64,000 nucleotides of DNA, from positions 52,227 through 116,226 of the forward strand of contig CAZYXZ010000003.1 of assembly GCA_964651395.1 (NCBI GenBank), read 5' to 3'. The notes below the pieces were generated by a model that was not told where the DNA came from, made no database searches, and saw only the letters and a list, made by a program, of their open reading frames with translations. Shown here one piece after another: positions 26,909-50,422 of this stretch. Position 1 is the first letter of the stretch, and each line of letters begins with the position of its first letter. This DNA is from an uncultured Frankiaceae bacterium. Its GTDB lineage: Bacteria > Actinomycetota > Actinomycetes > BP-191. Both the position numbers and the translations under genes were made by a program.

Positions 26909-27193
26909 GAGCGGATTCTCTCGGTTGCGGCCCTGACGTGAGCGGTCGTCTACAGACCGACCCGCCCGGACGCACTGTGTGACATCAGCTGCTCGCGTTT
27001 CACGTAACTGAGCAGTGCCCCGGTGCTACGGATCCCGGACTGGTAGCCGACTAGGTGTGAAGCGACACCGACGCGGGCCGCCGTCTGGAGGAATCCACGT
27101 CGAAGACTCGCGAAGTTGTGTTGGCCCAGTAGGCCGGCTCTTCGGCGCGGCGGCGGACAAGCGCACTCAGGGCCGGGACCTCGATGCCTCTTG

Positions 27194-30057: not shown

Positions 30058-31088
30058 GCGGACAGACGCTTCCGCGAAAGGGATGCCGACTCGAGCTCGG
30101 CGAACCCAACGCGCTCTGTCTGCCCGACTGCTCGATAGGCGGTGCGCGCCACCAGGTCAAGCGCGGCACCGATTTTGCCGAGGCTCTGGTTGAACAGGAG
30201 CGTGAGGGCGGGGCTCTCTAGGAGGTCACTGCCGGCCTGGTTGCTCAGCCGCAGCATCACTGCCTGGCTGTGGATCGCGTCGCGGAGCATCAGTCGCGCG
30301 TCGACGTCGTCAGCGTCGACGGCCGGGAACTCAAAGGTTTCCTTGCGCTCGTGCAGTTGGGCCAGCAGGTCGCGGAGCTCACCTTCCGGCACCAGCATCG
30401 GGTTGCACAGCGGCGACTGGTCGAAGTCAAGTGCGGTGAAGAGAACGATCGCGGGCACGAGGTCGACGACGCGCTTGAGGAAGTTCACCATGTCGGCGAA
30501 CTTCGACGACGCGAAGTTCACCATCCCGGCCCTGCGCGCCGACGCGTTGTGAACGTCGTCAATGATTACCAGGCGAACACCGTAGGTGTGGCATTCCTCG
30601 GCGAACTGGTCAAGCATCTCGTTCGCCGTCATCCCCAATCTCCTCGGCGGGATCCCGAGGCTGGCCAGCAGGACGCGCGCGAGGTCCTTGATTTCACTAG
30701 TGGGCGCCTTCACGCATACCACCGGGATGATCTTGTGGCGGCGATCGCCGTCCAAGTAGTCCCGTCCAGTGCGCCAGTCCCGTTCGCACAGTTCCAACCC
30801 GAGGCGAATCGCGAAGGCAGTCTTGCCCGATCGTGCCGGTCCGCCGACACAGAACAACTTGGAGTCCGTTCGAGGTTCCTGGAGGACTTGCCAGGCGTAG
30901 TCGAAGGCGGCGGTCCAACGCGGATACTTCACGTGCCCGAGCCCAATGTTGTAGCGCCGGCGGTTGTCGTCGTCGAGGTCCATTGGCGCGTCACGGTGCC
31001 GAACGTGCCAGTCGTAGTAGCGCTCCAGCATCGGGAGACGGGTCGGCAGTTCCGCGGGGCGCTCGGGGACCCACAACGTCGCTTTCAC
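30054..31088 (-). CDS. tnsC: TnsC/TniB-family AAA+ ATPase (transposition regulator)
   Basis: Walker A FCVGGPARSGKT and Walker B LVIIDDVHN. It sits between the Mu-type transposase and tniQ. Confidence 0.85.
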   Translation of the reverse strand: MKATLWVPERPAELPTRLPMLERYYDWHVRHRDAPMDLDDDNRRRYNIGLGHVKYPRWTAAFDYAWQVLQEPRTDSKLFCVGGPARSGKTAFAIRLGLELCERDWRTGRDYLDGDRRHKIIPVVCVKAPTSEIKDLARVLLASLGIPPRRLGMTANEMLDQFAEECHTYGVRLVIIDDVHNASARRAGMVNFASSKFADMVNFLKRVVDLVPAIVLFTALDFDQSPLCNPMLVPEGELRDLLAQLHERKETFEFPAVDADDVDARLMLRDAIHSQAVMLRLSNQAGSDLLESPALTLLFNQSLGKIGAALDLVARTAYRAVGQTERVGFAELESASLSRKRLSA

Positions 31089-33091: not shown

Positions 33092-34149
33092 GACGTTCGC
33101 CCGAACACAGCCCTACCTACGCCGGCGTTCAACCGCGCCCGCAGCCCCTGACCCTCTGAGACGCGGCGAGTCATGTCCACCAGATCCGCGATTTCTGGTC
33201 GCGTCATGATGTCCGGCCGTTGCTCGAAGGCAGGCTCCCTCGTGATCCAGGTGGGGCCGATGATCGGCGGGCCGAGCGGAAGGTGCAGACGGCCGTTCTG
33301 AATCAGGTGCTCGGTCGCGTGGAGCGGAGCGACAGGCCCTCTGAAGGTGGTGCGGATTCGCTGCATCGAGCACCCGTTCGCCGGCAGCCACTCCTCGATC
33401 CGTTCGGCGAGGGCGACATAGCGCCTGGGGGGATCCGCCCACTGGTCGAGGGCTCGCAGGTTGAAAGCACGCTGTGCCGTCATGGGGTGGCGGACCTCGT
33501 ACGTCCAGCCCACGGACTCTGCGAAGCGTGCCGTCAGCTCCCACTGCAGCAGCACGTCGAGCGGCGGCCGCTCGTAACTGGTGACGTCGAGCAGAACCCT
33601 CTCGCCGGCGTCGGTGAACACCAGCAGATCCGGGTCGTGCCGCAGGTCCAGGCTGCCGTGCCGCCAAGACAGCCGGACCATCTGGGTCACGAGTGCTCGG
33701 TCGGGCCTGCCGCGGAGCGCATCCCACATGTGCTCGAGCTCGTTCTGGCTCGCGCCGGCGACATGGAACGGCACCCGCCGCTTGATCAACTGGAACCTGA
33801 TCTGATTCGTGCGGCCCTTGTAGTTCGCGGCTCGGCGGACCTCAGCCAACCGAAGTGGATCGATGGCCGCGAACTCCGAGGGAGTGAGCCGCGTCTGCTT
33901 GCCTTCGTGCTGGTCCGTGGCGTCGAGCAGTGCCAGACAGGAGCAGCTTTCGGCCAGCGAGTCCAGCGTCGCGTCATCGACCAGAGCGTCGAAAACGGCC
34001 CGCACACGCTCATCCCGCCCGATCTGCAGGCGGGGGATGTCGTCGACGACGTAGACGCTGCGGGTGCGGCGTCGCTGCGGCCGCGGCTGCCTGCGCGTGG
34101 TCGCTGACTCCGTCACGCGGGAGAGCAGGACGCGCACAGGCACCGACAT
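33088..34149 (-). CDS. tnsA: TnsA-like endonuclease subunit (putative)
   Basis: First gene of the ATGA-coupled operon. It has restriction-endonuclease-like motifs (NELEHMW ... DPDLLVFTDAGERVLLDVT) resembling the TnsA E...D...K region, but the canonical Lys position is not evident. Confidence 0.5.
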   Translation of the reverse strand: MSVPVRVLLSRVTESATTRRQPRPQRRRTRSVYVVDDIPRLQIGRDERVRAVFDALVDDATLDSLAESCSCLALLDATDQHEGKQTRLTPSEFAAIDPLRLAEVRRAANYKGRTNQIRFQLIKRRVPFHVAGASQNELEHMWDALRGRPDRALVTQMVRLSWRHGSLDLRHDPDLLVFTDAGERVLLDVTSYERPPLDVLLQWELTARFAESVGWTYEVRHPMTAQRAFNLRALDQWADPPRRYVALAERIEEWLPANGCSMQRIRTTFRGPVAPLHATEHLIQNGRLHLPLGPPIIGPTWITREPAFEQRPDIMTRPEIADLVDMTRRVSEGQGLRARLNAGVGRAVFGRTS

Positions 34150-34823
34150 GGCGCGTCGGGCGGCTCGCTTCCTATGGGTTCGAGCGTCCAGGCGTCCAGG
34201 ACAACTGCCGCGGGGACCCTGCAGGGCTCGACGTCGGGCGCTCCTGGACGATCACTGCGCTGGTGGCCCGGCGTTGCTCTCTCGGCGCAGTCTGTGGACA
34301 AGGATGCGGGCGATGGCAGACTTCGCATAGCGGTACTCCCAGGACTCGGCTTGCTGGCTGACGTTTGAGGGGCGACCGCGAGTAGGGCCCGCGACGGCGG
34401 CAACTGTCGCGGGCCTTACGCATTGCTCTCGGCACATGTGGGCCGTCCTCGAACGAACTCGGCGCGCTGGCTGACTCAAGGCTTCAGCAACACGCCCCGT
34501 GGCGACGGCAACCGCCCACGGTGACGTTGACAGCCCACAGAACTCGGCCATCACGCTGCCACCAGACCTCTTGGCGCGGGAGCGTATTGCCGTCCGCCTC
34601 ATTACGCCAGTCCAACGTGGCCGATTTTTGCAACGCCAGGTGCGTCTCACGTCTCCGGAATTGTGCCTACAGTCCGGGAAGTGCTGCTGGGTGACAGCAC
34701 ATCTGTGCCGAATTTCGCGCGCATTTAGCGGTGCGCATGGACTGATATCGCTTTCTTGCCAAGGGATCTGACACGTAGCCTGGCAACTGCTTCCGGTGAC
34801 CTGTCAACGCTAGACTCGCCGCC

Positions 34824-35150
34824 ATGGGGCGCCAACGACCGCACGCAGCCGTCCCGCCGTGGGCGACCAGGGTGATCGGCGGAACCACGTTCTTGGCTCG
34901 ACCATGCGCCAATCCGGGTTGCCGGCGACCAGTCTTTTGGGACGGCGGACGGGGTCGGCCGAGCGAGTACTGCTCCCCTCAGGGCAACCCGATCGGCAAC
35001 TGTCGACTGGAACGACTGCGCCGGCGACGCGAGGTAACCGCCCGCATCGCCCACGTTCGACGGCAACTGAGCGAGGCTCGAAGTGGGACTGACCGCGACG
35101 AACTCGAGTCCGGTCTGCGCCAGCTGGAGTGGTTGCGCGGTGCGCTGTAG
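34824..35150 (+). CDS. Small Cys-containing (Zn-ribbon-like) hypothetical protein
   Basis: 108 aa, CANPGC...YCS...NC followed by a basic coiled region. It lies between tnsA and hsdM. An overlapping minus ORF 34725..35357 is equally possible, and both are uncertain. Confidence 0.25.
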   Translation: MGRQRPHAAVPPWATRVIGGTTFLARPCANPGCRRPVFWDGGRGRPSEYCSPQGNPIGNCRLERLRRRREVTARIAHVRRQLSEARSGTDRDELESGLRQLEWLRGAL

Positions 35151-35322
35151 CCGCAGAAGGCGGCCGCGCAGTCGTGAGAGCCGGTTCGGTAAGTCCAGGT
35201 GCGGAGGCGACTGCTGAGACCAGGCTCGCGCGGGCTGTCCGAGCGGCACCAGTACGGGCCACTCGTCCTTTCCGCAGAGCGGGCAGACTCCACTAGTACC
35301 CGCGACGACCAGGGGCCGCTCG

Positions 35323-36885
35323 ATGACCAAGCACAAGACCCGCGAAACGGTGGACATCTACAACATCGCCGATCGCCTATGGGCGACCGCCGACGAGCTA
35401 CGCGCCAACTCCCACCTGAAGGCCGCCGAGTACTCCGTGCCGGTTCTCGGCCTGATCTTTCTCAAGTTCGCCGACAGCAGGTTCGCCCAGGCCGAAGCCG
35501 AGTTGGCAGGGAGCAGCACCGGTCGTCGCGAGATCGGCAAGGCCAACTACCAAGCCAAGAGCGTCCTCTACCTGCCTGATGGGGCCCGGTTCGCCAACCT
35601 GCTCAACCTCAAAGAGGGCGACAACCTCGGCAAGGCGATCAACGACGCCATGTCGGCCATCGAGGCGGAGAACCCGTCGCTGAAAGGCGTCTTGCCACGG
35701 ACCTACCAAGCGCTGACCAACGACACATTGGTAAGCCTGCTTCGCTCCGTGAACTCCATCCTCGGCGACATCGAAGGCGACGCCTTCGGCAAGGTCTACG
35801 AGTACTTCCTCGGCAAGTTCGCAGTGGTCGAAGGTTCAAAGGGAGGCGAGTACTTCACGCCTACCCCGATCGTTCGCCTGATCGTCGAGATCATCGAACC
35901 GTTCAACGGCAAGATCCTCGACCCAGCATGTGGGTCAGGCGGCATGTTCGTTCAGAGCGCCCGCTTCGTGGAGGAACACCGCAACGGCAAGTCCGGTCGG
36001 CTCTCGATCTACGGCCAGGAGCGAGTGAACGAGACCATCCGGCTGTGCAAGATGAACCTCGCCGTGCATGGGCTTGAAGGCCAAGTGCGCCAGGCCAACA
36101 CTTACTACGACGATCCCTTCAAGTCTGTTGGTCAGTTCGACTACGTGATGGCTAACCCGCCCTTCAACGTCAACAAGATCGACAAGACCAAGCTTGAGGG
36201 CGACAAGCGATTCCGGCTCGGAGTGCCGAAGGCCGACAACGGCAACTACATCTGGATCCAGACCTTCTACTCGGCGCTGAACGAGAAGGGCCGCGCTGGG
36301 TTCGTCATGGCCAATTCAGCCGCTGATGCAGGCGGGAGCGAGTTGGCAATTCGCCAAAGGATGCTGGCGGAGAAGGCAGTGGATGTCGTTGTCTCGGTTG
36401 GACCGAACTTCTTCTACAGCGTGACGTTGCCGGTCACGCTGTGGTTCCTGGACCGGGGCAAGGCCACCGACGAGCGCGCGGAGAAAGTGCTGTTCATTGA
36501 CGCGCGCAGAGTCTTCCGCCAGATCGATCGTGCGCATCGCGACTGGACCCCCGACCAGATTGAGTTCTTGGCAAACATCGCCCGCATGTACCGAGGCGAG
36601 GAGCCAGAGTTGGTCCACGGATCAGCCTTGCTGTCTTCAGCGTTTCCGGACGGGAAGTACACCGACGTTCCGGGGCTTTGCGCAGTTGCGACCATTGAGC
36701 AGATCCAAGAGCAGGGTTGGAGCCTCAATCCCGGCCGCTATGTAGGCGTCGCAGAGGCGAAGCACGACGGAGTCGACTTCAAGACACGCTTGGCTGAGCT
36801 GACCAAAGAGTTGGACGAGCTGACCACCGAAGCTGCACAGCTCCAGTCAAGGATCGCAGCCAACGCCGCAGAGCTGCTGCGTTGA
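35323..36885 (+). CDS. hsdM: Type I restriction-modification system DNA methyltransferase subunit
   Basis: HsdM N-terminal domain ([34 protein letters not shown]), AdoMet motif [10 protein letters not shown] and catalytic NPPFN. Confidence 0.9.
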
Positions 36886-38117
36886 ACACGTCGTGGCCGG
36901 CGGTCCGACTCGCCAACGTGTGCGATCGGATCACGGTGGGTTGGGTTGGCCCGATGGTCGACCAGTATGTGGACGCCGGAGTTCCCTTCCTGCGGTCGCA
37001 AAACATCACGCCGTTCCGCATTGCCACAGAGAACATCAAGTTCATCACGCCGGAATTCCACGAGCGCATCCGCAAGTCAGCGCTTCGCCCCGGAGACGTC
37101 GCAGTTGTCCGCACGGGTTACCCCGGCACAGCCGCGGTAGTGCCTGCGTCACTAGGCGAGGCCAACTGCGCCGACCTCGTCGTGATCACCCCTGGCCCGC
37201 AGCTCGACTCGCGGTTCCTCGCAGCAATCTTCAACTCGTCCTGGGGGGTTGCCTCTGTCGGAGGCAATCTCGTTGGCTCTGCTCAGCAGCACTTCAATGT
37301 CGGGGCAGCCAAACACATGGAAGTGCGACTTCCCCCGATAACGATCCAGCAGAAGATCGCTGGTGTCCTCACGGCCTACGACGCCCTCATCGACAACAAC
37401 ATGCGTCGGATCAAGCTCTTCGAGGAGTTGGCGCAGCGCATCTACCGTGAATGGTTCGTTGAGTTTCGCTATCCCGAGCACCGAACGGTTCCGCTCGTCG
37501 ACACGGAACTTGGCTGTGCGCCGCAAGGCTGGTCGGTAGAGCCATTGTTCGCAGTAGCTGACGTTGCCTTCGGGTTTGCATTCAAGTCCACGGGATTCAA
37601 CGAAGAGCACGGAACGCCGGTGGTGCGAATCCGTGACATCCCTAATGGAGAGAGCCGGACGCTAACCACGGAGGACCCCGGTGATCAATATCGCATCAGG
37701 GACGGCGACATCCTCATCGGCATGGACGGCGACTTCCACATGGGCCGATGGTCAGCTGGTGAGGCGTGGCTCAACCAGCGGGTCACACGCGTTCGGCCAG
37801 CGACTCCGGGCCTCTCGACGTACTCCCTCTACATGGCCCTCGAGGATCCCATCGCAAGGTGGAACGAAGCAATCGTGGGAACGACGGTTGCTCACTTGGG
37901 CAAGCGCCACCTCGAGAGAATCAGCATCCTGATCCCGCCTGCACCGTTGCGAGAGGCAACGTCACGCCTGCTTGATCCCATCCTTTCCATGGAGATCACT
38001 CTTCGGAAAGCCAACCGCCAACTCCGAGCCAGCCGCGATCTCTTGCTGCCGCGCCTGATCGCAGGTGACCTCGAATTGGCAAAGCTCACTATCGACGTCG
38101 ACACGGATGCCTCGTGA
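36882..38117 (+). CDS. hsdS: Type I restriction-modification system specificity subunit
   Basis: Two target-recognition domains separated by conserved coiled repeats. It overlaps hsdM by 4 nt. Confidence 0.85.
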
Positions 38118-41100
38118 CTCCGTCAGGGCGGTACACCGAGGACCAACTCGTGGAGCAACCCGCCATCCAGCTGTTCGAGTCGCTGGGTTGGGAGGCGGTT
38201 AACGCGTACCACGAGACGCTTGGGCCGAACGGCACGTTAGGGAGGGACAACAAGTCTGAAGTCTTTCTGACGCGGCGCCTCCGCGCGGCGATAGAGCGAT
38301 TGAACCCAATGGCGCCGAGCGAGGCCGTGGAGCAGGCCGTCGCGGAACTCACCAAGGCTCGCACGGTCATGCACTACGCGAGGGCCAATGCAGAGATCCA
38401 TGGGTTGCTACGTGACCGTGTTGAGGTCTCCGTCCGACAGCCAGACGGGACCACCTTGCCCGAGCGGCTCATCGTCATCGACTGGGACAACCCCGAGAAC
38501 AACGACTTCCTGCTGGTCTCTCAGCTCTGGGTTCACTCGGACCTGTACCGCCGTCGAACGGATCTCGTCGGCTACGTCAACGGGATCCCGCTTGTTTTCA
38601 TCGAGTTAAAGGCGTCGCATCGCAGCCTCAAGCACGCATACGACGACAACCTTCGCGACTACCGCGACGCCATCCCAGAGCTATTCACTCCGAACGGGTT
38701 CATCGTCCTGTCCAACGGAGCAGACACGAAGGTCGGATCGATCACCGCCGGCTGGGAGTTCTTCTCCGAGTGGAAGAAGATCGACTCCGAAGGTGAACAG
38801 GGCTCGGTCTCGCTCGAGACCGTCATCCGGGGCATGTGCACCAAGGATCGCCTGCTCGACATCGTGGAGAACTTCATCGCCTACCAGGACCTGCCCGGTG
38901 GCTTCGTCAAGATCCTTGCCCGCAACCACCAGTACCTCGGCGTCAACAACGCCATGGCCCGCCTGGAGGAGCTCCGGCACGCAACGCCCGAGGAGCGCGG
39001 CAAACTCGGCGTCTTCTGGCACACCCAAGGCTCCGGCAAGACCATCTCGATGTTGTTCTTCTCGCAGAAGGTGCTACGCAAGCTCCCCGGCAACTGGTCG
39101 TTCGTCATCGTCACCGACCGCGACGACCTCGATGAGCAGGCCTATAAAGAGTTCTCCTACGCTGGGGCAATCGCCGAAAAGCACATGCGTGCAACGAGTT
39201 CCGAGCACCTTCGACAGCTGCTCGGCGAAGACCACCGCTACGTCTTCACGCTGATACACAAGTTCCGCACCGACAAGGGCGAGACACACCCGGTCATCTC
39301 AGACCGCGACGACGTCATCGTGATCACGGACGAAGCTCATCGCACTCAGTACGACACCCTGGCGCTCAACATGCGCAATGCGCTTCCGAATGCGAGCTTC
39401 CTCGGGTTCACCGGCACCCCGCTCATCGCGGGCGAGGAGCGGACGCGAGAGGTCTTCGGCGACTACGTCTCTGTCTACAACTTCGCCGCGTCCGCGGCTG
39501 ACAAGGCGACCGTCCCGTTGTACTTCGAGAACCGCATTCCCCAAGTCGCGATCGAGAACCCAAACTTCGCAGACGACCTCATGGCCATCGTCGAGGAGGC
39601 GGATCTCGATGACGACCAGGAGCGCAAGCTCGGCCGCCTCCTGGGCCAGCAATACGAGCTGATCACCCGGGATGACCGACTAGATGCCGTCGCTGGGGAC
39701 ATCGTCGACCACTTCCTCGGCCGGGGTTTCCCCGGCAAGGCTCTCGTCGTTTCCATCGACAAGATCACCGCGGTACGAACCTACGAGAAAGTGCAACGGT
39801 TCTGGGCAGAACGGTTGGAGCACAGCAAGCAGGCCATCGCGGGCGGAGGTCTCACGGAGGACGAACACGACCGGCTCGTCCGCGAGATCGTCTTCATGCG
39901 CAACACCGACATGGCTGTGGTCATCTCGCAGTCGCAGAACGAGATCTCGGATATGGCGGCGCGGGGGCTCGATATCAAGCCTCACCGCAAGCGCATGGTG
40001 GAAGAAAGCCTGGAAGACAGGTTCAAGGACGCGCAGGACCCGCTGCGAATAGCGTTCGTCTGCTCCATGTGGACCACGGGTTTTGACGTGCCATCTCTGT
40101 CCACCGTGTACCTGGACAAGCCGTTGCGCAACCACACGCTGATGCAGACGATCACACGCGCCAACCGGGTGTTCCCCGAGAAGAACAACGGACTGATCGT
40201 CGCCTACGTGGATGTGTTCAGCAACCTTCAGAAGGCTCTCGCCATCTACGCGATCGGGGGTAAGCCCGGCGATGTTCCCGTCGAGGAGAAGGGAGCCCTG
40301 GTCGACGCGCTGAGCGAGGCTGTCGGCGATCTCCGCGCATTCTGCGCCGCACGGGAGGTCGACCTCGACGCACTTGCCGGCCTAACAGGCTTCGAGTTGG
40401 TCGCGGAAGGCAAGCGAACCGTCGAACTGTTGATGGTCGACGACGACGAGAAGATCGCATTCCTCTCTCGCACCGCCCTCGTTGACCGGCTCTACAAGGC
40501 CATCCTGCCGGACACCCGCGCGAATCAGTTCAGCCGGCTTCGCGCAGTCTCCAAGTTCCTCGCCGACGGCATCGCTGCGTACACCGAGCGCCCGGACGTC
40601 GGCAGCGTCCTAGGGAGAATTCAGCAGCTCCTCGATGAGTCCGTCGCCGCTCAGGAGTACGTGATCCCACGGACCGACGCCGAGGCGTTGTTCGATCTCG
40701 GAGCTGTTGACTGGACGGGCCTTCAAGACGCCTTCAAGCAAGGCCGGCCCCGCACGGCGGCGCAACGGCTTCGCACCCTGCTCGCCGCCAGGATCACCGC
40801 TCTCGTTCGGCTCAACCCATCACGAGTAGACCTCGTCGAACGCTTCGAGAAGCTGGTCGCCAACTACAACGCCGGCAGCATCAACACCGAGACGTTCTTC
40901 CAAGAGCTACTGAGCTTCAGCGCATCGCTTTCCACCGAAGAGGCACGGGCGTTGTCCGAGAACCTCAACGAAGAGCAGCTCGCCATCTTCGACCTGCTCA
41001 TGCGCCCAGCACCCGACCTATCTGACGAGGAGCACGCGCAAGTGAAGCGCGTCGCCGAGGAACTGCTTGCAGTCCTGAAGCGCGACAAGATCGTGCTCGA

Positions 41101-41278
41101 CTGGCGCAAGGAGCAAGCAACCCGCGCCGCGGTGAGAGTCGCGGTCGAGGAAACCCTCGACCGGTTGCCGGAGAAGTTCACCCGGCAGCTCTACGCACAG
41201 AAGTGCGACGCGGTCTATCAGCATGTCTTCGACAGCTACTGGGACGACGGACACTCGATATACGAGCACGTCGCCTAG
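38114..41278 (+). CDS. hsdR: Type I restriction enzyme endonuclease/helicase subunit
   Basis: 1054 aa with an N-terminal PD-(D/E)xK region, the SF2 helicase motifs GSGKT and ITDEAHRTQ, and a C-terminal domain. It overlaps hsdS by 4 nt. Confidence 0.9.
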   Translation: MTPSGRYTEDQLVEQPAIQLFESLGWEAVNAYHETLGPNGTLGRDNKSEVFLTRRLRAAIERLNPMAPSEAVEQAVAELTKARTVMHYARANAEIHGLLRDRVEVSVRQPDGTTLPERLIVIDWDNPENNDFLLVSQLWVHSDLYRRRTDLVGYVNGIPLVFIELKASHRSLKHAYDDNLRDYRDAIPELFTPNGFIVLSNGADTKVGSITAGWEFFSEWKKIDSEGEQGSVSLETVIRGMCTKDRLLDIVENFIAYQDLPGGFVKILARNHQYLGVNNAMARLEELRHATPEERGKLGVFWHTQGSGKTISMLFFSQKVLRKLPGNWSFVIVTDRDDLDEQAYKEFSYAGAIAEKHMRATSSEHLRQLLGEDHRYVFTLIHKFRTDKGETHPVISDRDDVIVITDEAHRTQYDTLALNMRNALPNASFLGFTGTPLIAGEERTREVFGDYVSVYNFAASAADKATVPLYFENRIPQVAIENPNFADDLMAIVEEADLDDDQERKLGRLLGQQYELITRDDRLDAVAGDIVDHFLGRGFPGKALVVSIDKITAVRTYEKVQRFWAERLEHSKQAIAGGGLTEDEHDRLVREIVFMRNTDMAVVISQSQNEISDMAARGLDIKPHRKRMVEESLEDRFKDAQDPLRIAFVCSMWTTGFDVPSLSTVYLDKPLRNHTLMQTITRANRVFPEKNNGLIVAYVDVFSNLQKALAIYAIGGKPGDVPVEEKGALVDALSEAVGDLRAFCAAREVDLDALAGLTGFELVAEGKRTVELLMVDDDEKIAFLSRTALVDRLYKAILPDTRANQFSRLRAVSKFLADGIAAYTERPDVGSVLGRIQQLLDESVAAQEYVIPRTDAEALFDLGAVDWTGLQDAFKQGRPRTAAQRLRTLLAARITALVRLNPSRVDLVERFEKLVANYNAGSINTETFFQELLSFSASLSTEEARALSENLNEEQLAIFDLLMRPAPDLSDEEHAQVKRVAEELLAVLKRDKIVLDWRKEQATRAAVRVAVEETLDRLPEKFTRQLYAQKCDAVYQHVFDSYWDDGHSIYEHVA

Positions 41279-41399: not shown

Positions 41400-41858
41400 A
41401 TGACACGAGTGCTAGGCATCAACGTCGCGGGTTCGACGGCCTATCTCGCGCTCTGCGACGACGCGGAGATCACGAACGACAAGCCGGAGAAACTCGTCGC
41501 ACCCGATGGGCTGGCGGCTGACAGTGGCACGCTCGCATTTCTCGACGACATCGGCCGTGTGCTTGGTCAGCTCCGGGTTGAACGCGTTCGCGTCCTGGAC
41601 CCCGAGCCGACTTATTCGACCAGCGTCCAGAGTGTCGTCCCGAGGATCACGATCGAGACCCTGTTCCTGCTAGCCGCGTGGCAGCGAGGCCTCGACGCCG
41701 GCCGCATCAGTCGCGCCCGTATCCGGTCGCTGCTCGACCTGGGCCGATCGGGCTCGCTCAGCTCCTTGGCCGCGAGCGTGACCAAGCCCGTAGGCTCCTC
41801 GTGGACCGGCAAGCGCGATCTGGCGGCGCTGGCAGCGCTCGCCGGCGGGCGGGAGTGA
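41400..41858 (+). CDS. Hypothetical protein coupled to the Ser/Thr kinase (N-terminus faintly RNase-H/YqgF-like)
   Basis: GAGGA RBS and ATG 41400. The protein reads MTRVLGINVAGSTAYLALCDD.... Its stop is 2 nt before the kinase ATG, inside the kinase RBS (GGGAGTGAccATG). Confidence 0.45.
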   Translation: MTRVLGINVAGSTAYLALCDDAEITNDKPEKLVAPDGLAADSGTLAFLDDIGRVLGQLRVERVRVLDPEPTYSTSVQSVVPRITIETLFLLAAWQRGLDAGRISRARIRSLLDLGRSGSLSSLAASVTKPVGSSWTGKRDLAALAALAGGRE

Positions 41859-41860
41859 CC

Positions 41861-42967
41861 ATGGTGCTGCACGGCGAACGACTGGACCGGCCCACCTACA
41901 ACTTCCTGACGACCATCAACGAGGGCAACACTGGGATGGCGTACCTGGGCGTGCATGAGGTGTACGACCGCAAAGTCGTCCAAAAGGTCATCTCGCTGCT
42001 CGGGGTCGAGGACGCGATCGCGTTCAACGAGCCCCGCATGCTGAACGAGATGCGCCACCCACATCTCGTAGAGGTCTGGGAGGCCCAATGGGACCCGGAC
42101 AACAAGGCAGTCAAGGCGATCACATTCACCATGCCGTTCTACGAGGGCGGCAGCGTCAACCAGCAGCTCGCGACCGGCAGCCGGTTCAGCCTCGCCGAGG
42201 CGGTCAGCGTCACGCGCGGCACGCTCTCCGCGTTGCACTACCTCCACGTCGAGCGCGCCGTGCTGCACCGCGATATCAAGCCCGGCAACATCTTCCTCTC
42301 CGCAGACCGTCGTCACCCCTACCTCGGCGATCTGGGCAGCGCCGTCACCATGACCCCAGCCAGGGATGCAGAAGCGCGAAGCGGTACTCCGCTTTACCGC
42401 CCCCCGGAGAACCACCTCGGGCGGTACACCGTGCGCGGGGAGCTCTACGGACTCGGTATGACCCTGCGGGAGATGCTCCACGGGCCATACCCCTACGCCG
42501 ACTTCGACGACGCCACGATTGCCACTCGCCTGGACGCCGGCCGACGAGCCATCCCCGATCGCTTCTACGAGATCACGGCGCCGCAGGTTCCGGATGCACT
42601 AGCTCGACTCGCCCGCAGTCTCACCCATGCCGATCCGGCGCGACGGCCGGCGTCCGCCGCAGACGCTCTCAGGCGACTCGACAGCATCCGTTATCTGACG
42701 TGGCACGTCGTCCATGAGGACGCCGACAGGGTCGTGTGGGATGCCACGTGGTCTAACCAGCCCGCCAACCGGGCGAGGGTCTATCGCATTGAACTGACGC
42801 AGATTCGGCGCGGCCGCTACGCGGGACTCGTTCGTGCAGAGGCCCGCTGGCGCCCACCGGGCACCGCCGCCTGGCGTGGCATACGCGCCTTGGATGCCCG
42901 GCTTCGCTCGGACGATCGGGCGGCGCTACGGGGCGTCTTTTCAGCGGTCGAGCAAGCCGCGAGGTAA
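41861..42967 (+). CDS. Ser/Thr protein kinase (Hanks-type) with ~100-aa C-terminal extension
   Basis: Motifs: VVQKV (beta-3 Lys), catalytic loop HRDIKPGNIFL, LGDLGSA, GTPLYRPPE. Confidence 0.75.
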   Translation: MVLHGERLDRPTYNFLTTINEGNTGMAYLGVHEVYDRKVVQKVISLLGVEDAIAFNEPRMLNEMRHPHLVEVWEAQWDPDNKAVKAITFTMPFYEGGSVNQQLATGSRFSLAEAVSVTRGTLSALHYLHVERAVLHRDIKPGNIFLSADRRHPYLGDLGSAVTMTPARDAEARSGTPLYRPPENHLGRYTVRGELYGLGMTLREMLHGPYPYADFDDATIATRLDAGRRAIPDRFYEITAPQVPDALARLARSLTHADPARRPASAADALRRLDSIRYLTWHVVHEDADRVVWDATWSNQPANRARVYRIELTQIRRGRYAGLVRAEARWRPPGTAAWRGIRALDARLRSDDRAALRGVFSAVEQAAR

Positions 42968-43350: not shown

Positions 43351-43372
43351 ATGTTTATCGTAGGAGGCCGGT

Positions 43373-43702
43373 GTGACATCGGGAGTCGACGACACGTTGG
43401 ATCCCGGAGAACTCCTCTGCACATCACGCGACCGCCAGGTCGGGCTGCGGGTTCCTGTCGCCGTCAGCCAGCGCGTCGATGCACTCCTCGCCCGGGCCCG
43501 AGCGGCGGGCGAGCGGACGGACCGCAAGGAACTGATCACGGCCTTGTTGGCGGAGACAGATCTCTCCGGCGACCAACTGGGCGACTTGCTGCGGCGGTAT
43601 CGACGCATGACTGTCGCGCACGCCCTTCTGGACCAGAGCGCTGATGGCTCCGTTGTGAGACTCGCGCGAGCTCGGCCCGGGCCGCGCCCGCGTGCCTCCT
43701 GA
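43373..43702 (+). CDS. Small hypothetical protein (possible DNA-binding/regulatory)
   Basis: GTG start 7 nt after a TAGGAGG RBS; 109 aa, charged and helical (RKELITALLAETDLSGDQLGDLLRRYRR). Confidence 0.4.
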   Translation: MTSGVDDTLDPGELLCTSRDRQVGLRVPVAVSQRVDALLARARAAGERTDRKELITALLAETDLSGDQLGDLLRRYRRMTVAHALLDQSADGSVVRLARARPGPRPRAS

Positions 43703-43912: not shown

Positions 43913-45085
43913 TCACGGAAGGCTCCAAAGCGGTTCGTAAGGTCCGGTCTTTCCCAACCAGTTCATCAATCGGAGAGGACCAACCGCGTTAGCCCACCAG
44001 CCGATGGCGACTGCCAGCTCAACTGGGGTCGCCAAGTACAGGTCTATGCAGTCGATGTCGTTCCGGTCCGAGAGCTCCGTCAGGGTGCTGCCAATCTGTG
44101 CAGCCCAAGCCGCGCAAGTGTTTGCGTCTTGAACTGCCGTTCTCGCGGTCCCTTTCGGGGGCTTGAGCGTGAGCCGTTCACGGTATTTGTCGCCGGCCCG
44201 CACCCGTGCAGTGATCCCGGCGTCGACGTCGCGACTCACTGCGACCCCCAACGCCGCCGCTCGGGCATCGATCGGACCGGCCGGGAAGGCTTCCCGCACA
44301 AGAGGCTCGACGGCATCGGGCCTACGGATCGTGTGGAACTCCTCCTCTCCCCGTGGCATGCGAATGGTGTAGCCGGTTGGTTCGGCGAACGCGTACCCAA
44401 TGGCTGCAGCAATGGGCAGGTGCGACTTGATGGCCAGTTGGAGGGTCGACGGCCCGTATCGGGCCTTCAGCAATCCGGCCACAGTTGCGAGGGCTTCCTT
44501 CAGATCCGCACGCGTGGCTTCGTCGATCGCACCTGAGCTGAATCGATGGCGCCAATCGACACTGAGGACAGCGGTGTCTCGCATGTCTGCCGTGTCGTCG
44601 TAGGTGACGAGGCGCATCGACGCCGGCAGGTTCTCGCTGTAGGCCCGCGCAATGAGTGCCTCTGCCACACGCGCTGCGACGGCGCGCGCCGTCACAGTCG
44701 GATCAGAGCCTGGCTGAACGACGTGGCCGTTCTGCTCGCCCAGTTCGAATCCTGTCGCCTCGCGCAGGCGATCGCTGCCTTCGCTCGGCGTCATGTCATC
44801 GAACACCGGGATGACGAGCAGGCCGTGGCCGGACCGCGCCGCGGCGATAGCTGGGAGCTCGACAGTCGCGACGTACTCGGACGCCAACAGCCTCGCATCG
44901 ACCCACACAATCGCCGCCCTGCAGGTGGCGAGGTCCGCAAGCACGAACTCGGTCGTCCCTGCTCCTACCGTTAGGCTCTCGACGTCGCGCCATGGCGTGA
45001 CTCCATGTTCAGAGAGTGCCTCGACAAGAAGGCGTCGTTCGTCCCGACTACCCGAGTAGCTGATGAACGTTCGGTTCACGCGCAA
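43913..45085 (-). CDS. TIR-domain effector with C-terminal putative SAVED-like sensor domain (CBASS Cap-type effector)
   Basis: The N-terminus FISYSGSRDERRLLVEALSEHGVTPWRD... is a typical TIR fold with a WxxxE-like segment (SEYVATVEL). The ~250-aa C-terminal domain is putative SAVED. The TTG start overlaps the upstream gene's stop by 10 nt. Confidence 0.65.
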   Translation of the reverse strand: MRVNRTFISYSGSRDERRLLVEALSEHGVTPWRDVESLTVGAGTTEFVLADLATCRAAIVWVDARLLASEYVATVELPAIAAARSGHGLLVIPVFDDMTPSEGSDRLREATGFELGEQNGHVVQPGSDPTVTARAVAARVAEALIARAYSENLPASMRLVTYDDTADMRDTAVLSVDWRHRFSSGAIDEATRADLKEALATVAGLLKARYGPSTLQLAIKSHLPIAAAIGYAFAEPTGYTIRMPRGEEEFHTIRRPDAVEPLVREAFPAGPIDARAAALGVAVSRDVDAGITARVRAGDKYRERLTLKPPKGTARTAVQDANTCAAWAAQIGSTLTELSDRNDIDCIDLYLATPVELAVAIGWWANAVGPLRLMNWLGKTGPYEPLWSLP

Positions 45086-47142
45086 GCCTCCGGGGATGCA
45101 GCGGGCAGGTCGCCGGCCTCGCAGATGTCAGCCGGGATCAGCTGCCCTTCGGTGACTACGTGCCCACGAACGAGTCTTGTGTCCGCGTGCACGATCACAA
45201 GCACCGGTTCGTCGGTGCCCGACTCCTCGGCGAGCGCAAGCATGCTGGCGACGTCGAGGTGGCTCGGACCGCTGGGCTCCGGGCCTGTGTGGGAGTGCCA
45301 CTCACCGAGATAGCCCAGACGCTCGTCCGCGTCGTGAAACGGTTCCACGGTGCGCGGAACGCTGTGCGCGGCGATCCTGAAGCTCTGGGGAGCAGCACCG
45401 GGATCGGAGACCTCGACTGCGGCTGTCACAACTGGTCTGGCATCGATGAGCGCGCCGACAAGGACCCCGCCGGTCTCGTTGGGCGCAGCGGCACTGGCCG
45501 CGGACCGCATACTCGCCAGCGCGCTCTCCACCACGTCGATCGTCCTCGTCATGTCCGTCCGACGCAGGCGCCCCACTCTGTGGAACGGGACGGGTCCCGA
45601 ACGAAGTACCTCGATCACCTCGTCGGGCTGCTCATTGCGGCCGACAAGGAAGTCGACGACCACCTCGGAAGCTAGTGCGGCTGCATGCACGACTGCGATC
45701 GGAGGCGAGTTGTGGACCAGCGCTAGGCAACCCGTCTCCGAGCCGACGTATTCGACCTCCTCCTCTAACGGGGTGATTTCGGGATACGCGTCGAGGTGCG
45801 GGCGCCGGATGAACAGAGTGTCCGAAGGCAGCGCTTGTCGGCGTACTCGCGCAACGGTCCCTCCCCGAAACAGCGCGGCCGAGACCAACGGCCTCTGCTG
45901 GGCGGCCGCGACCTGTCCGGCCAGCTGAGACAGACCCACGAAACCGGTCGCTTCGACAGTCACATCGACGTCCGCGAGCAGTTCGCGCAGCCCGTCAATC
46001 GACCACTTGATGCCGTAGTCGTCCTCCGCTGGTACTTCGACGCGGACCCACGGGTATTGCTCCAGGTCCGCCTGCAGGGCGTGGGTCTTCAACGTCGCCG
46101 CGGGAGTGCCCGGCGCGGCAGCATGGCGGATCAGGTTGGCTGGCCAGAGCCGGTCCGAGTCCACAAGGCGCAGCGTGCCCACGCCGGCACGGGCGAGGAG
46201 CTCGGCGACGTGCGACCCGACGGCACCGACGCCGAGGATCGCGACCCGTTTCCCCTGCAGTGTCGCCGCGTCGGGTCCGGCCCGCAGCAGCAGCTCGTCC
46301 GGGCCGTTTGGCCGTAGCGCTACGAGGGCGGTTTCCCGCGCGCCGTCAGCGCCGCGGACCGAGAGAAGCATCGTCGCCACGAGCCCGGCGTTGTTGCGCC
46401 AGATGAGGCCGAACATGACGACAGCGCGATCGCGAAGGTCCTTGTCGAGTCGTTCGCGTTGCCGATCGGTCAGCAGTGACCGGAACTCATCGAGGTTGCG
46501 TGGTGGCCCTGAGACGTTTTCGCGCAAGAACCATCGGCCGCGGACCTGGCCGTAGTTCACTCCGCCGGGCAGCGGGCTGCCCGCTGTGTACGCGCCCGGG
46601 CGCAGGTCGTAGACAGCTCCTGGACTGGGGCGCCCGTCCGCCGATACCGCATCCGCGAACTGGAACTCACCGTGCTGACCATCGGCGGTCTCGCCGGACA
46701 GCAGCCCCTCCAGATCGACGAGTCCGGCAACCATCGGCATCGGCTGCTGCCAGTAGATCTCGGGGTTGCGCGCATTCTCCGAACGAGCAAATCCGAGATC
46801 AGCGTCCTCGACCCACTCTGCGATCCGCGCACTCAACCCGTCGAGAGTGGTCCACCGTTGGCTCGCATCCTCCGCCTGCCAGATGCACAGGCGTTCTTGG
46901 TCGGCGTGCCAGTTTGAGATCCCCGGGACGATGAGCAGTGGCGGAAGGTATGGCCACGAGACCCTCAGACGGATGCCCATGCGCTCCGCGGTCGTGTACC
47001 CAGCGGAGATAAGGGCGGGATCCGTGGGGCCCGTCCAGGTCCAATCGTCTTCGCGTACGTAGCCGGCCCGCTCGAGTTCACCGATGAAGGATCGGAGGCT
47101 GTCGGGGTCTGCAGCGGAGTCGAACGGCGGGTCAGCGACCAC
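45076..47142 (-). CDS. E2-like / E1 (ThiF/MoeB Rossmann) / JAB (JAMM) deubiquitinase-like fusion protein (Cap2+Cap3-type CBASS accessory)
   Basis: The N-terminus is E2-like (WHADQERLCIW, candidate catalytic Cys). The middle is a ThiF Rossmann domain (RVAILGVGAVGSHVAELLARAGVGTLRLVDSDRL). The C-terminus carries JAMM-type GEWHSHTGPEPSGPSHLD. The GTG start at 47142 overlaps the CD-NTase stop. The longer ORF N-terminal extension (to 47562) is low-complexity and is rejected. Confidence 0.7.
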   Translation of the reverse strand: MVADPPFDSAADPDSLRSFIGELERAGYVREDDWTWTGPTDPALISAGYTTAERMGIRLRVSWPYLPPLLIVPGISNWHADQERLCIWQAEDASQRWTTLDGLSARIAEWVEDADLGFARSENARNPEIYWQQPMPMVAGLVDLEGLLSGETADGQHGEFQFADAVSADGRPSPGAVYDLRPGAYTAGSPLPGGVNYGQVRGRWFLRENVSGPPRNLDEFRSLLTDRQRERLDKDLRDRAVVMFGLIWRNNAGLVATMLLSVRGADGARETALVALRPNGPDELLLRAGPDAATLQGKRVAILGVGAVGSHVAELLARAGVGTLRLVDSDRLWPANLIRHAAAPGTPAATLKTHALQADLEQYPWVRVEVPAEDDYGIKWSIDGLRELLADVDVTVEATGFVGLSQLAGQVAAAQQRPLVSAALFRGGTVARVRRQALPSDTLFIRRPHLDAYPEITPLEEEVEYVGSETGCLALVHNSPPIAVVHAAALASEVVVDFLVGRNEQPDEVIEVLRSGPVPFHRVGRLRRTDMTRTIDVVESALASMRSAASAAAPNETGGVLVGALIDARPVVTAAVEVSDPGAAPQSFRIAAHSVPRTVEPFHDADERLGYLGEWHSHTGPEPSGPSHLDVASMLALAEESGTDEPVLVIVHADTRLVRGHVVTEGQLIPADICEAGDLPAASPEACA

Positions 47143-48256
47143 CGAATCCTCGCTCTGCGCTCCCGCCCACGGCCAGATTGGCCGCTGCGGCGCCCATCGT
47201 GGCGCCCGTGCCACGGCAACCAGGCGGGAGTGGGAAGACCTGCGTGTCCCGGCCGTTGCCTCCGAAGACCGCACGCCATTCATGTGCCGCCTGGCATTGC
47301 GAGTCCGCGGTGACGGCGCTCCTCGCTCGTCTTGCCAGCATCGCGAATGTCTCCGCAGCGACTTGCGATTCGGCTTGCGTTGGCGCCGGCTGGTAGGGCA
47401 CGTCGAGAACTGGGTCGCGGATCGGCTCGCTCGAAGCCAGGCGGGACGCCAAGAACACCAACGCAGACTCTGCGATATCAGCCCAGCTCGCTCCAACGAT
47501 CGCACCCGTTCGGAAACCCTCGTGTAGAGCCATCTCGTAGTAGAGCGCGCCTGGCTTTGCATCGGGCAAGTGCGCGGACTTGATCTGCCGGACCATCCTC
47601 ACGACGCGAACGAATCCACCGATGCCGTCGATCTGCGGATCCCGGTTGCGCTCGTGAGTGAGGTCCGTGAGTGCAACTGGGTTGGTGAGACGCCAACGTC
47701 CGCTGCGCGCCACTACATCTGTTCGGGGATCGCGCTGCACCTCGGGGATTCCGTAGTGCTTCCCCCACTTGACCGCAGGCACGACGTCCACCGAGAACTC
47801 GAACGCCAGCTCCGGTAGCCGCTGAATCACCGACTCCGCGCGGGTTGCCTCCCATTCGTAGACCTGTGCCGCGCTTCTCAGTGATGCCACGCTCGGCGTT
47901 CGAGTGCGACTGAAGGCGATCTTGAACGACCGCGGTTGCCTTGTGAGTCGTGATTGCGCAGCGAACGGGTCCAAGGCTCGGCCGAACATCTCGTAGGTTT
48001 CGTCGGCAGTGATCGACTCCGTGTTCTCTGAGGACAGCCGCCCGAAGACGTCGACATCCTTGCCCGGCCACGTGGATACCTTGCGCCCGTAGCTGCCGAT
48101 GAGGACGTCTTCCAGGCCGTGCCCGAGCAGCTCGGTGCTGGATCGCAGGACCTGCCGCACCTCTTGATGCGCCGCGATCGCGATCAGGGCTCTGTCCCCC
48201 AGCCGGATCCGCTGCTGCATGACCGTGAATTGAGGGTTCAGCTCGAACCTCGCCAT
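47132..48256 (-). CDS. cGAS/DncV-like nucleotidyltransferase (CD-NTase, SMODS family)
   Basis: Polymerase-beta-type motif IGSYGRKVSTWPGKDVDVFGRL (GS...DxD). Start is placed at ATG 48256 (MARFELNPQF...). Confidence 0.75.
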   Translation of the reverse strand: MARFELNPQFTVMQQRIRLGDRALIAIAAHQEVRQVLRSSTELLGHGLEDVLIGSYGRKVSTWPGKDVDVFGRLSSENTESITADETYEMFGRALDPFAAQSRLTRQPRSFKIAFSRTRTPSVASLRSAAQVYEWEATRAESVIQRLPELAFEFSVDVVPAVKWGKHYGIPEVQRDPRTDVVARSGRWRLTNPVALTDLTHERNRDPQIDGIGGFVRVVRMVRQIKSAHLPDAKPGALYYEMALHEGFRTGAIVGASWADIAESALVFLASRLASSEPIRDPVLDVPYQPAPTQAESQVAAETFAMLARRARSAVTADSQCQAAHEWRAVFGGNGRDTQVFPLPPGCRGTGATMGAAAANLAVGGSAERGFGGR

Positions 48257-48427
48257 CTGCGGTCCAATCGATGCGCTGTCGTGGGGTCTACACGGCCCTT
48301 GCGGTCCCATCAGAGATATCACTCGGGTGTGACAACTTGGCCCGGTGTGGGGCATGCCTGTGGACGACCGGGGACAACGGATGGCTAGGGGTCGGACTCC
48401 GCTTCCGCACGGTCATGGTGATCAGGT

Positions 48428-48495
48428 CGTGCGCAGAAGTTTGATCACGCGCTGATCAGATAGCTCTGCAATTGATCACTGGAATTGCCACCTAC
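48428..48495. repeat. Related motif copy GCGCAGAAGTTTGATCACGCGC plus TCTGCAATTGATCACTGGAATTGC palindrome at the right island edge
   Basis: Similar to AGAAGTTGATCTTGCGCGC (19918) and TCTGCAATTGCGCAG (19797). It lies in the lower-GC spacer between the CD-NTase start and the dnaB stop. Confidence 0.4.
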
Positions 48496-48574: not shown

Positions 48575-50422
48575 CTAGGTCGTAGGACTCATGTCGACGA
48601 AGCGGGAGTAGTGACCCTGGAAGGCGACGGTCACGGTGTTGGTCGGGCCGTTGCGGTGCTTGGCCACGATGAAGTCGGCCTCGCCGGCGCGCGCCGACTC
48701 CCGCTCGAATGCGTCCTCGCGGTACAGCAGGATCACGACGTCTGCGTCCTGCTCGAGACTGCCTGACTCTCTCAAGTCCGAGAGCTGCGGCTTCTTGTCG
48801 GAGCGCTGCTCAGGGGAACGGTTGAGCTGGCTGATCGCAACGACCGGGACGTCGAGCTCCTTGGCCAGCAGCTTCATCGACCGGGAGATCTCGCTGACCT
48901 CCTGCTGGCGGTTCTCGACGCGCTTCGGTGACGTCATCAGCTGCATGTAGTCGACGACGACGAGCTGGAGGTCGTGACGCTGCTTGAGCCGCCGCGCCTT
49001 CGCGCGGATCTCCATCATCGTGAGGTTCGGCGAGTCGTCGATGAACAGCGGCGCGTTGGCCACCTCGCCCATCCGCCTCGCGAGCCGGCCCCAGTCCTCC
49101 TCGCTCATCCGACCGGTGCGCATGCTCTGCAGGTGCACGCGCGCCTCGGCGGACAGCAGACGCATGGTGATCTCGAGCTTGCTCATCTCCAGCGAGAAGA
49201 TGACCGCCGGCAGCTGGTGCTTGATCGCCGCCGACCGCGCGATGTCGAGACCGAGCGTCGAGTTGTGCGTGGGGATCTTCGTGGGCCCGGCGAGGAACAG
49301 GTGGTCGGCGGCATCGACCTGCACGCACCGCACGGGCACGCTGGGCACCCGCCGGGCTCCCGTGACGAAGACCTCGCTGTCCCCCTCGCCGATCGCATGG
49401 TTCGGCGCGCCCGCGACGCGCAGCGTCGCGGCGATCTCGACCGTCGTGACCACGGCGGCAGCGGTGAAGGGTTCGGCTCGTGCGCCGACCGTGACCAACG
49501 CGCGGGCGCGTCGCCGAGTGTGCGTCGTCGTCAGCCACTGGTGCTGCGCGTCGGCGACGATCGTCGCGCCGTCGGAGAAGGTCAGCTCGAAGCACGCGCG
49601 AAGGTGCATGACCTCCGTCGCGGCCACCACCCGCGTCGGCTGACCTTCTGAGCCGAGCAGGAAGTCACCGACCTGTACCTCACCCATCGTGGTCCAGCCG
49701 GTGGGCGTGGGCAGCGGAGTGTCGAGGGCCAGCGCCTTACCCACCGCCGGGCGCGCGGCGAGGATGACGAGGTTGCCAGGGTGCAGGCCGTTGGTGAGCT
49801 TGTCGAGCTCGATGAAGCCGGTCGGTACGCCGGTCATGATGCCGTCGCGCGACTCGATCGACTCGATCTCGTGCAGGGTCGGCTGGAGCAGGTCCTCGAG
49901 GCGGATGTAGTCCTCGCTGGCCCGCCGCTCGGTCACATCGAAGATGGCCTGTTGCGCGCGGTCGACGATGTCGTCGACGTCCTGCCCGCGCCCGGCGAAG
50001 CCGAGCTGCACGATGCGCGTGCCGGCCTCGACCAGCCGGCGCAGGATCGCCTGCTCGGCCACGATCTTCGCGTAGTAGCCCGCGCTCGCCGCAGTCACGA
50101 CCGTCGAGACCAGGGTGTGCAGGTACGGCGCGCCGCCGGCCCGCGCGAGGTCGCCGCGCCGGTTGAGCTCGGCCATCACGGTCACCGCGTCGGCGGGGTC
50201 GCCGCGCGCGTAGAGGTCGAGCGCGGCCTCGTAGATGGTCTGGTGCGCCGGCCGGTAGAAGTCGGTCGGCTTGAGTACCTCGAGGACGTCGCTGATCGCG
50301 TCCTTCGACAGCAGCATCCCGCCGAGCACACCCTGTTCCGCCTCGATGTTCTGAGGGGGCGTGCGCTCGAACTCCGAGGGCGGCGCAGACGACGGGCCCG
50401 GCGCGTTGAGGTCGATGCTCAC
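48575..50422 (-). CDS. dnaB: Replicative DNA helicase DnaB, interrupted by a 158-aa mini-intein in the P-loop
   Basis: N-terminal DnaB domain, and Walker A AARPAVGK | intein | STLGLDIA. Intein block A is ALALDTPLPTPTGW, block B is LTTTHT, and the terminal blocks end ...HLFLAGPTKIPTHN with Ser at the +1 position. RecA-like C-terminal motifs are intact. Confidence 0.9.
   Translation of the reverse strand: MSIDLNAPGPSSAPPSEFERTPPQNIEAEQGVLGGMLLSKDAISDVLEVLKPTDFYRPAHQTIYEAALDLYARGDPADAVTVMAELNRRGDLARAGGAPYLHTLVSTVVTAASAGYYAKIVAEQAILRRLVEAGTRIVQLGFAGRGQDVDDIVDRAQQAIFDVTERRASEDYIRLEDLLQPTLHEIESIESRDGIMTGVPTGFIELDKLTNGLHPGNLVILAARPAVGKALALDTPLPTPTGWTTMGEVQVGDFLLGSEGQPTRVVAATEVMHLRACFELTFSDGATIVADAQHQWLTTTHTRRRARALVTVGARAEPFTAAAVVTTVEIAATLRVAGAPNHAIGEGDSEVFVTGARRVPSVPVRCVQVDAADHLFLAGPTKIPTHNSTLGLDIARSAAIKHQLPAVIFSLEMSKLEITMRLLSAEARVHLQSMRTGRMSEEDWGRLARRMGEVANAPLFIDDSPNLTMMEIRAKARRLKQRHDLQLVVVDYMQLMTSPKRVENRQQEVSEISRSMKLLAKELDVPVVAISQLNRSPEQRSDKKPQLSDLRESGSLEQDADVVILLYREDAFERESARAGEADFIVAKHRNGPTNTVTVAFQGHYSRFVDMSPTT

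Follow-up and report, generated by a model that had tools for sequence, protein, structure and literature searches.

What defence system is encoded by three overlapping minus-strand genes at positions 43,913 to 48,256 of a 64,000-nucleotide stretch of Frankiaceae DNA, and how could its cyclase take part in ubiquitin-like conjugation when the predicted protein ends two residues beyond a conserved glycine? The stretch, called the window below, comes from an uncultured bacterium (assembly GCA_964651395.1, contig CAZYXZ010000003.1, positions 52,227 to 116,226 of the forward strand). A sequence-only reading had described the genes as a type II-style antiphage signalling system based on cyclic oligonucleotides (CBASS), composed of a nucleotidyltransferase of the cGAS/DncV-like family (CD-NTase), an E2/E1/JAB triple fusion and a TIR effector with a putative SAVED domain. 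Our analysis indicated that the operon is very probably a functional type II CBASS, an abortive-infection or defence system transcribed as one translationally coupled unit, and that the capped C-terminus of its cyclase may be the only potentially new biology here. The parts of the operon, in positions of the window, are as follows.

47132..48256, minus strand: CD-NTase (CBASS cyclase), 374 aa, assigned by PADLOC and by AlphaFold2/Foldseek
47135..47188, minus strand: disordered cyclase tail, aa 357-374, with a predicted local distance difference test score (pLDDT) below 50, ending in ...GGSAERGFG372-G373-R374
47132..47142, minus strand: 11-nt overlap of the cyclase gene with gene 2, read directly from the sequence
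45076..47142, minus strand: Cap2-Cap3 fusion, 688 aa, with E2, linker domain, E1 adenylation domain and JAB
45079..45546, minus strand: JAB/JAMM (Cap3-like) domain of the fusion, aa 533-688, assigned by PADLOC PDLC00904 and Pfam PF14464
43913..45079, minus strand: TIR-SAVED effector, 388 aa from its most likely start, a GTG, with TIR at about aa 1-130 and SAVED at about aa 210-388

PADLOC, Pfam, profile searches against the PDB and AlphaFold/Foldseek agreed on the type II identity: a CD-NTase active site, a Cap2 with E2 and E1 parts, a JAB domain and a nucleotide-sensor effector were all present in the same operon, and every functional assignment in the earlier interpretation held. For the cyclase, the PADLOC Cyclase model PDLC00810 matched at 3e-69, and the catalytic residues G54-S55, D67, D69 and D157 were invariant in 27 homologues, which supports the claim of a GS...DxD nucleotidyltransferase; on alignment these catalytic residues were retained rather than lost. 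The AlphaFold2 model had a pLDDT of 90.4, and the C-terminal tail was its only segment below 50. The top 50 Foldseek matches listed from the PDB were all CD-NTase/cGAS-family enzymes, led by P. aeruginosa CdnD and by E. cloacae and S. enterica CdnD (template modelling scores of 0.6-0.72 at 16-22% identity), and the sole sequence match in the PDB was P. aeruginosa CdnD (E = 1e-3). By its model the cyclase therefore appeared structurally closest to clade-D CD-NTases, an uncertain placement. Its product would most likely be a cyclic trinucleotide such as 3'3'3'-cA3, a point we hold with less confidence, because the fold is clade-D-like and the nearest effector homologue responds to cA3. A family-specific insertion at about aa 117-150 was modelled as helical, and confidently so. 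The phage-protease activation loop described by Hobbs & Kranzusch 2026 was considered for this cyclase and rejected, as the AlphaFold2 model had no long disordered internal loop.

The second gene product proved to be what had been proposed, with E2, E1 and JAB in one 688-aa polypeptide, as borne out by PADLOC, Pfam, invariant residues and fold. The PADLOC E1-E2 model PDLC00847 covered aa 12-532 (2e-97) and the JAB model PDLC00904 aa 534-685 (6e-25), while Pfam placed ThiF at aa 294-434 (4e-17) and Prok-JAB at aa 540-653 (4e-12). Across 15 homologues the E2 residues H79 and C86 were invariant, as were the E1 residues G304xG306xxG309, D328, R339, K352, D397 and the crossover-loop C472, and the JAMM motif E556, H616, H618, S627 and D630 (E...HxH...S..D). 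The structure prediction that had been suggested for this protein gave an AlphaFold2 model with a pLDDT of 78, in which loop 462-478 was disordered; the crossover loop beside the E1 catalytic cysteine of E. cloacae Cap2 is also disordered (10.1101/2022.03.31.486616). E. cloacae Cap2 (7TO3) was also the best Foldseek match of the fusion (6e-16 over 601 columns), followed by BubCD and Atg7.

Both domains claimed for the third gene product were found by Pfam, TIR_2 at aa 7-99 (3e-7) and SAVED at aa 216-388 (8e-17), and the PADLOC SAVED_TIR model matched at 1e-33. A single-sequence phmmer search of the effector against the PDB returned marginal TIR matches only and did not find 7QQK, the TIR-SAVED protein of M. 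ketosireducens; a profile built from 11 homologues did reach it, at 9e-11 and over its full length (residues 1-371), and aligned E74 of the effector with the catalytic E84. In that species the cyclase makes cA3, and cA3 activates the cognate TIR-SAVED (10.1101/2022.05.04.490601). Only cA3 did so among the nucleotides tested, and the E84Q mutant is catalytically dead (10.1101/2022.05.04.490601). TIR-SAVED assembly and NADase activity are established for the M. ketosireducens protein and may by analogy extend to the effector described here; activation by cA3 and filament formation would likewise be expected from the homology and the clade-D-like cyclase.

The window DNA is high in GC, and the three intact open reading frames (ORFs; cyclase 48256..47132, fusion 47142..45076, effector 45079..43913) fill the reported interval exactly, free of frameshifts and internal stops. 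None of them is shortened in comparison with its family, which speaks against the pseudogenised remnant that the sequence-only reading had named as a refutation, and all peptides and coordinates quoted there were present. The cyclase gene starts at an ATG and closes with the codons TTC GGT GGT CGC TGA. Its TGA (47134-47132) falls within gene 2, which begins with a GTG at 47142, directly preceded by GAGGA, and stops at a TGA at 45078-45076; the overlap had been given as about 11 nt and is exactly 11 nt. The GTG is made of nucleotides 2-3 of the Gly372 codon and nucleotide 1 of the Gly373 codon, and the same 11-nt overlap occurs in six related loci (L001, L002, L003, L005, L006 and L033). The start proposed earlier for gene 3 had to be replaced. 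That TTG, at 45085, would give a 10-nt overlap and stands only 1 nt from GGAGG, whereas the GTG at 45079 lies 7 nt from GGAGG and shares a 4-nt GTGA overlap with the gene 2 stop. Gene 3 is thus most likely 45079..43913 (388 aa), because the Shine-Dalgarno spacing favours it, the corresponding residue is the first one in effector homologues (MN[RK].FISYS), and the fusion ORF of L002 and L004 likewise has a stop that overlaps the effector start by 4 nt.

We then turn to the C-terminus of the cyclase. Of 120 cyclase homologues surveyed, 117 had a recognisable tail of the form ...GGT.ER[SG]FG, in which F371 and G372 were invariant across an alignment of 27 sequences. Exactly two variable residues followed FG in 109 of the 117 (in the window, FG is followed by GR), and the last of them was Arg in 66 of these 109, while six close homologues terminated exactly at FG. 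Remote relatives in which Cap2 and Cap3 are encoded separately ended canonically, as ...ARGFG, ...RRFG or ...GRFA, that is in [FY][GA] (FG, FA or YA), and a few of them bore 2-5 extra tail residues. A wider check of 43 near-full-length representatives (300-450 aa, clustered at 50% identity) collected by profile search, with the tails judged by eye, placed 1-8 residues beyond the motif in about 11 of the roughly 38 that had a recognisable [FY][GA] tail. Our incomplete search of the type II CBASS literature found no mention of cyclase extensions, and the words 'extension' and 'precursor' are absent from the Ledvina preprint. The two residues beyond the Gly, on which the sequence-only reading had not remarked, are the one point at which the operon differs from the type II CBASS accounts covered by that search.

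In characterised type II systems the last residue of the cyclase is Gly or Ala and is adenylated by Cap2, and changing the Gly to Arg abolishes conjugation (PMC10097602). The protein predicted here would acquire such an end only after removal of its last two residues. Because the tail is conserved exactly to the residue at which the canonical relatives stop, these sequences are most simply read to mean that the additional residues are taken off ahead of E1 adenylation. In a linear cGAS-GFP fusion, Cap3 makes its cut exactly behind the final residue of the cyclase (10.1101/2022.03.31.486616), and the sister JAB peptidases of Bil and Bub systems, including the JAB-E1 fusion BubCD, cut pre-proteins to expose a reactive Gly (PMC11601596). 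By analogy with this cut site and this precursor processing, the fused JAB would most plausibly both mature the pro-cyclase and deconjugate it. We therefore propose, at even odds, that in the actinobacterial/Acidimicrobiia clade the cyclase is a pro-enzyme with a disposable dipeptide, and that the fused JAB is its obligatory maturation protease and so a positive, essential component of the system. The short caps found after [FY][GA] in other lineages may mean that pro-cyclase processing is a general, overlooked layer of type II control.

Such a system could work as follows. Upon infection, the CD-NTase would make a cyclic oligonucleotide. The E2-E1-JAB protein would handle the flexible C-terminal tail of the cyclase as ubiquitin machinery handles the ubiquitin tail, with the GR that follows Gly372 having to be clipped first by a peptidase, for which the fused JAB is the obvious candidate. 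E1 would then adenylate the C-terminal Gly and pass the cyclase as a thioester to C472 and on to C86 of E2, and ligation to target amines would prime cyclase activity; this Cap2-type conjugation is suggested here by the conserved residues, its mechanism being established for Cap2. The JAB may also reverse the conjugation. On the effector side, SAVED-driven filament assembly would create a composite TIR active site containing E74, and the activated TIR would hydrolyse NAD+ and thereby stop the infected cell. Cap3 acts in model systems as a brake or antagonist that can be dispensed with; if JAB cleavage is needed, Cap3 would instead be an essential activator in this clade. If true, this would parallel the processing of ubiquitin and Atg8 precursors and give a functional rationale for a JAB welded to E1-E2.

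Several observations weigh against these conclusions. The Pfam SMODS model scored the cyclase below threshold (19.9 bits against a gathering score of 26.5), and the protein shares no more than 21-22% identity with the closest CD-NTase of solved structure, which makes its clade and product uncertain. The predicted cyclase does not end in the Gly or Ala typical of type II, and the extension does not strictly go together with the fusion, since L012 and L014 are fused and end in FG while L016 and L020 are unfused and carry a 5-aa extension. Finally, a scan for a sigma-70 consensus and a terminator check around the operon detected neither. This last result, together with the location on a horizontally acquired island of low GC content at third codon positions (GC3), would suit a decaying or silent relic that no longer serves defence. 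We consider such a relic barely credible, however, for all three ORFs are full length with every catalytic residue intact, neither the coupling overlaps nor the Shine-Dalgarno sequences have been lost, and a motif upstream of the operon is conserved in homologous operons; the presence of a type I restriction-modification (R-M) system, a TmtA homologue and a defence-type kinase on the same low-GC3 island was counted in favour of a functional type II CBASS. It is also conceivable that the TIR-SAVED protein mainly senses a host messenger such as c-di-AMP and that the cyclase and Cap2-3 mostly modulate it, as Haloferax H-TIR-SAVED, whose operon has these three components too, senses c-di-AMP and does not depend on its cyclase to act (10.1101/2025.06.19.660554). 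This too we judge quite improbable, given that conservation of the catalytic residues of the cyclase is strict, that cyclase and effector slot were inherited together throughout the 32 related loci, and that the closest solved effector homologue is activated by cA3 alone among tested nucleotides.

A more serious challenge concerns the extension itself. The operon could be a type II CBASS in which the two extra residues are a neutral by-product of the 11-nt overlap, cut by a housekeeping carboxypeptidase or never removed, with the JAB acting only as the usual antagonist and the fusion having no special meaning. The gene 2 GTG does sit on the Gly372 codon, with the first in-frame stop two codons later, and the sequence of the extension is variable; the six close homologues that stop at FG, one of which (P0127) is probably the neighbour of a fused 701-aa protein (P0059), as the longest contig measures 12,709 nt for both, and the uncoupled loci named above fit this view as well. 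A mere by-product would nonetheless hardly be expected to keep a length of two in 109 of 117 homologues, to prefer Arg as its last residue (66 of 109) and to recur in several more distant lineages. The strong constraint up to FG makes sense only if Gly372 is still used, and a terminus other than Gly or Ala abolishes conjugation in the tested systems; because of these two points, some processing step appears to be needed. The JAB is, moreover, the operon's only dedicated, sequence-specific peptidase. On balance we regard the neutral origin as rather unlikely, and the proposal of a pro-cyclase matured by its fused JAB is carried into the comparisons below.

The canonical systems DncV-Cap2-Cap3-CapV of V. 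cholerae and CdnD-Cap2-Cap3-Cap4 of E. cloacae resemble the operon in their disordered, conserved cyclase tail, in an E2-linker-E1 Cap2 with E2 and crossover-loop cysteines, in a JAMM peptidase and in a nucleotide-activated effector. They differ in that Cap2 and Cap3 form one polypeptide here, the cyclase ends in FG-GR and not in Gly/Ala, and the effector is a TIR-SAVED protein rather than a phospholipase or nuclease, with identity of about 16-22%. The type II CBASS of M. ketosireducens (7QQK, Hogrel et al.) shares an actinobacterial host, the TIR-SAVED architecture, the catalytic Glu and a ubiquitin-like module in the operon, but it also contains NucC, its cyclase is a 31-kDa protein compared with 374 aa here, and the effector sequences are distant. 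H-CBASS2 of Haloferax sp. Atlit-48N (Choudhary et al.), likened here by its description, has the same three components and was tested in vivo, in an archaeal host. For the proposed maturation, the nearest counterpart is BubCD of type I Bub systems, whose JAB, fused to E1, cleaves the BubAB precursor right after a conserved Gly and exposes it for adenylation. In Bub, however, the JAB is N-terminal to E1, the substrate is a beta-grasp ubiquitin-like protein and catalysis proceeds through an oxyester, whereas here the substrate would be the cyclase, the E1 and E2 cysteines are kept and the processing step is proposed by analogy. Yeast Atg8 likewise ends in FG followed by R, and the R is clipped by Atg4.

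Neither the Cap2-Cap3 fusion nor the gene order is new. The sequence-only reading was correct that a single protein combines Cap2 and Cap3, but it overstated the implied novelty: the fusion family comprises about 100 full-length clusters at 40-60% identity (about 685 aa, ThiF plus JAB, the nearest at 59%), mostly from Acidimicrobiia and Actinomycetota metagenomes; the PADLOC E1-E2 models PDLC00835 and PDLC00827 already reach into the JAB; and earlier work on a type II CBASS of Haloferax describes an 'E1-E2-JAB' protein together with a cyclase and TIR-SAVED (10.1101/2025.06.19.660554). PADLOC also contains JAB-TIR-SAVED effector models. The order cyclase-Cap2/3-effector was likewise described accurately but is not novel, being shared with unfused relatives and with a B. 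cereus type II operon described as cyclase, Cap2, Cap3 and Cap4, the effector (10.1101/2023.09.29.560134). The operon is thus a further divergent type II CBASS in a defence island, and none of its three proteins exceeds about 60% identity to the closest relative found.

The 32 related loci were obtained by scanning species-representative genomes and derived from Acidimicrobiia, other Actinomycetota, Tepidiformaceae and Dormiibacterota metagenome-assembled genomes, and a few cultured actinobacteria. Cyclase, E2-E1(-JAB) and effector followed in this order in every locus whose genes were on the contig. The effector slot held TIR-SAVED in ten loci and otherwise a SAVED protein of about 500 aa with a GDDYQH N-terminus or a DUF6602 protein, a swapping of effectors typical of CBASS. 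As remote loci (L015-L022, L027, L029 and L031) keep cap2 and cap3 apart, as adjacent genes with an unchanged order, the triple fusion is simply a joining of neighbours. One metagenomic locus, L033 (4001-7222), encoded after the cyclase a single 1073-aa E2-E1-JAB-TIR-SAVED protein (P0037). The overlap is again 11 nt, and the whole type II CBASS is here reduced to two genes.

Upstream of the operon we noted one further element.

48313..48334, minus strand: promoter-like element TGTCACAC-N8-TATCTC, 57-78 nt 5' of the cyclase ATG

The general form, TGTC[AC]CAC-N8-TAnnnT, also occurred 72-215 nt 5' of the cyclase in L001, L003, L005 and L010, and 5 of the 17 occurrences of the motif core in 415 kb fell in about 4 kb of cyclase-upstream DNA. 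L019 is likewise listed among the loci with this motif. A second copy in the window, at about 43357-43378 on the minus strand, stands directly 5' of an apparently leaderless ORF at 43350. The element may act as a promoter; the scan for a sigma-70 consensus gave no match at this site. Its geometry presumably resembles that of the actinobacterial PafBC/RecA-NDp promoter (tTGTCRgtg-N8-TAnnnT), a likeness that would suggest DNA-damage-inducible expression. Four TGATCA palindromes were also seen within 60 bp (48419-48478) of the dnaB-cyclase intergenic region. The window holds 21 copies of TGATCA against 8.8 expected, and the cluster is significant within the window; it was rejected as a conserved CBASS operator, being absent 5' of the homologous operons.

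The surroundings of the operon comprise the following features.

22436-27025, minus strand: TmtA homologue, 1530 aa, full-length match to PADLOC PDLC03968 (E = 0)
28678-34251, minus strand: Tn7-like module with TniQ, TniB/AAA_22, a Mu-transposase-C-like protein and a 387-aa ORF
35218-41278, plus strand: complete type I R-M system (hsdM, hsdS, hsdR)
41678-42967, plus strand: defence-type Ser/Thr protein kinase, matching PADLOC mad6 (1.7e-39) and PD-T4-6 (5.8e-34)
48575-50422, minus strand: DnaB helicase, 615 aa, with DnaB_C matches in two stretches

GC3 was about 0.7-0.82 over some 30 kb (roughly 18-48.5 kb) compared with more than 0.9 in the flanks, which marks a horizontally acquired defence island with the operon at its edge; the island adjoins dnaB and ends at the dnaB 3' end, and no tRNA genes were found anywhere in the window. 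The TmtA homologue is probably defence cargo of the transposon. Several GGCAACTG/GGCAACCG repeats at 34300-35100 resemble sites that a transposase would bind at the end of a transposon; an inverted-repeat search for the ends of the Tn7-like transposon was uninformative. The R-M system, the kinase and the CBASS operon form a block between this transposon end and dnaB, with the kinase sitting between the other two. Four neighbouring ORFs (211 aa, the kinase, 183 aa and 109 aa) were rejected as accessory genes, as they had no homologues in the 32 related loci; only the kinase matched Pfam or PADLOC. On the far side of the operon, an insert in DnaB at about aa 225-385 (...C...THNS) looks by eye like a mini-intein.

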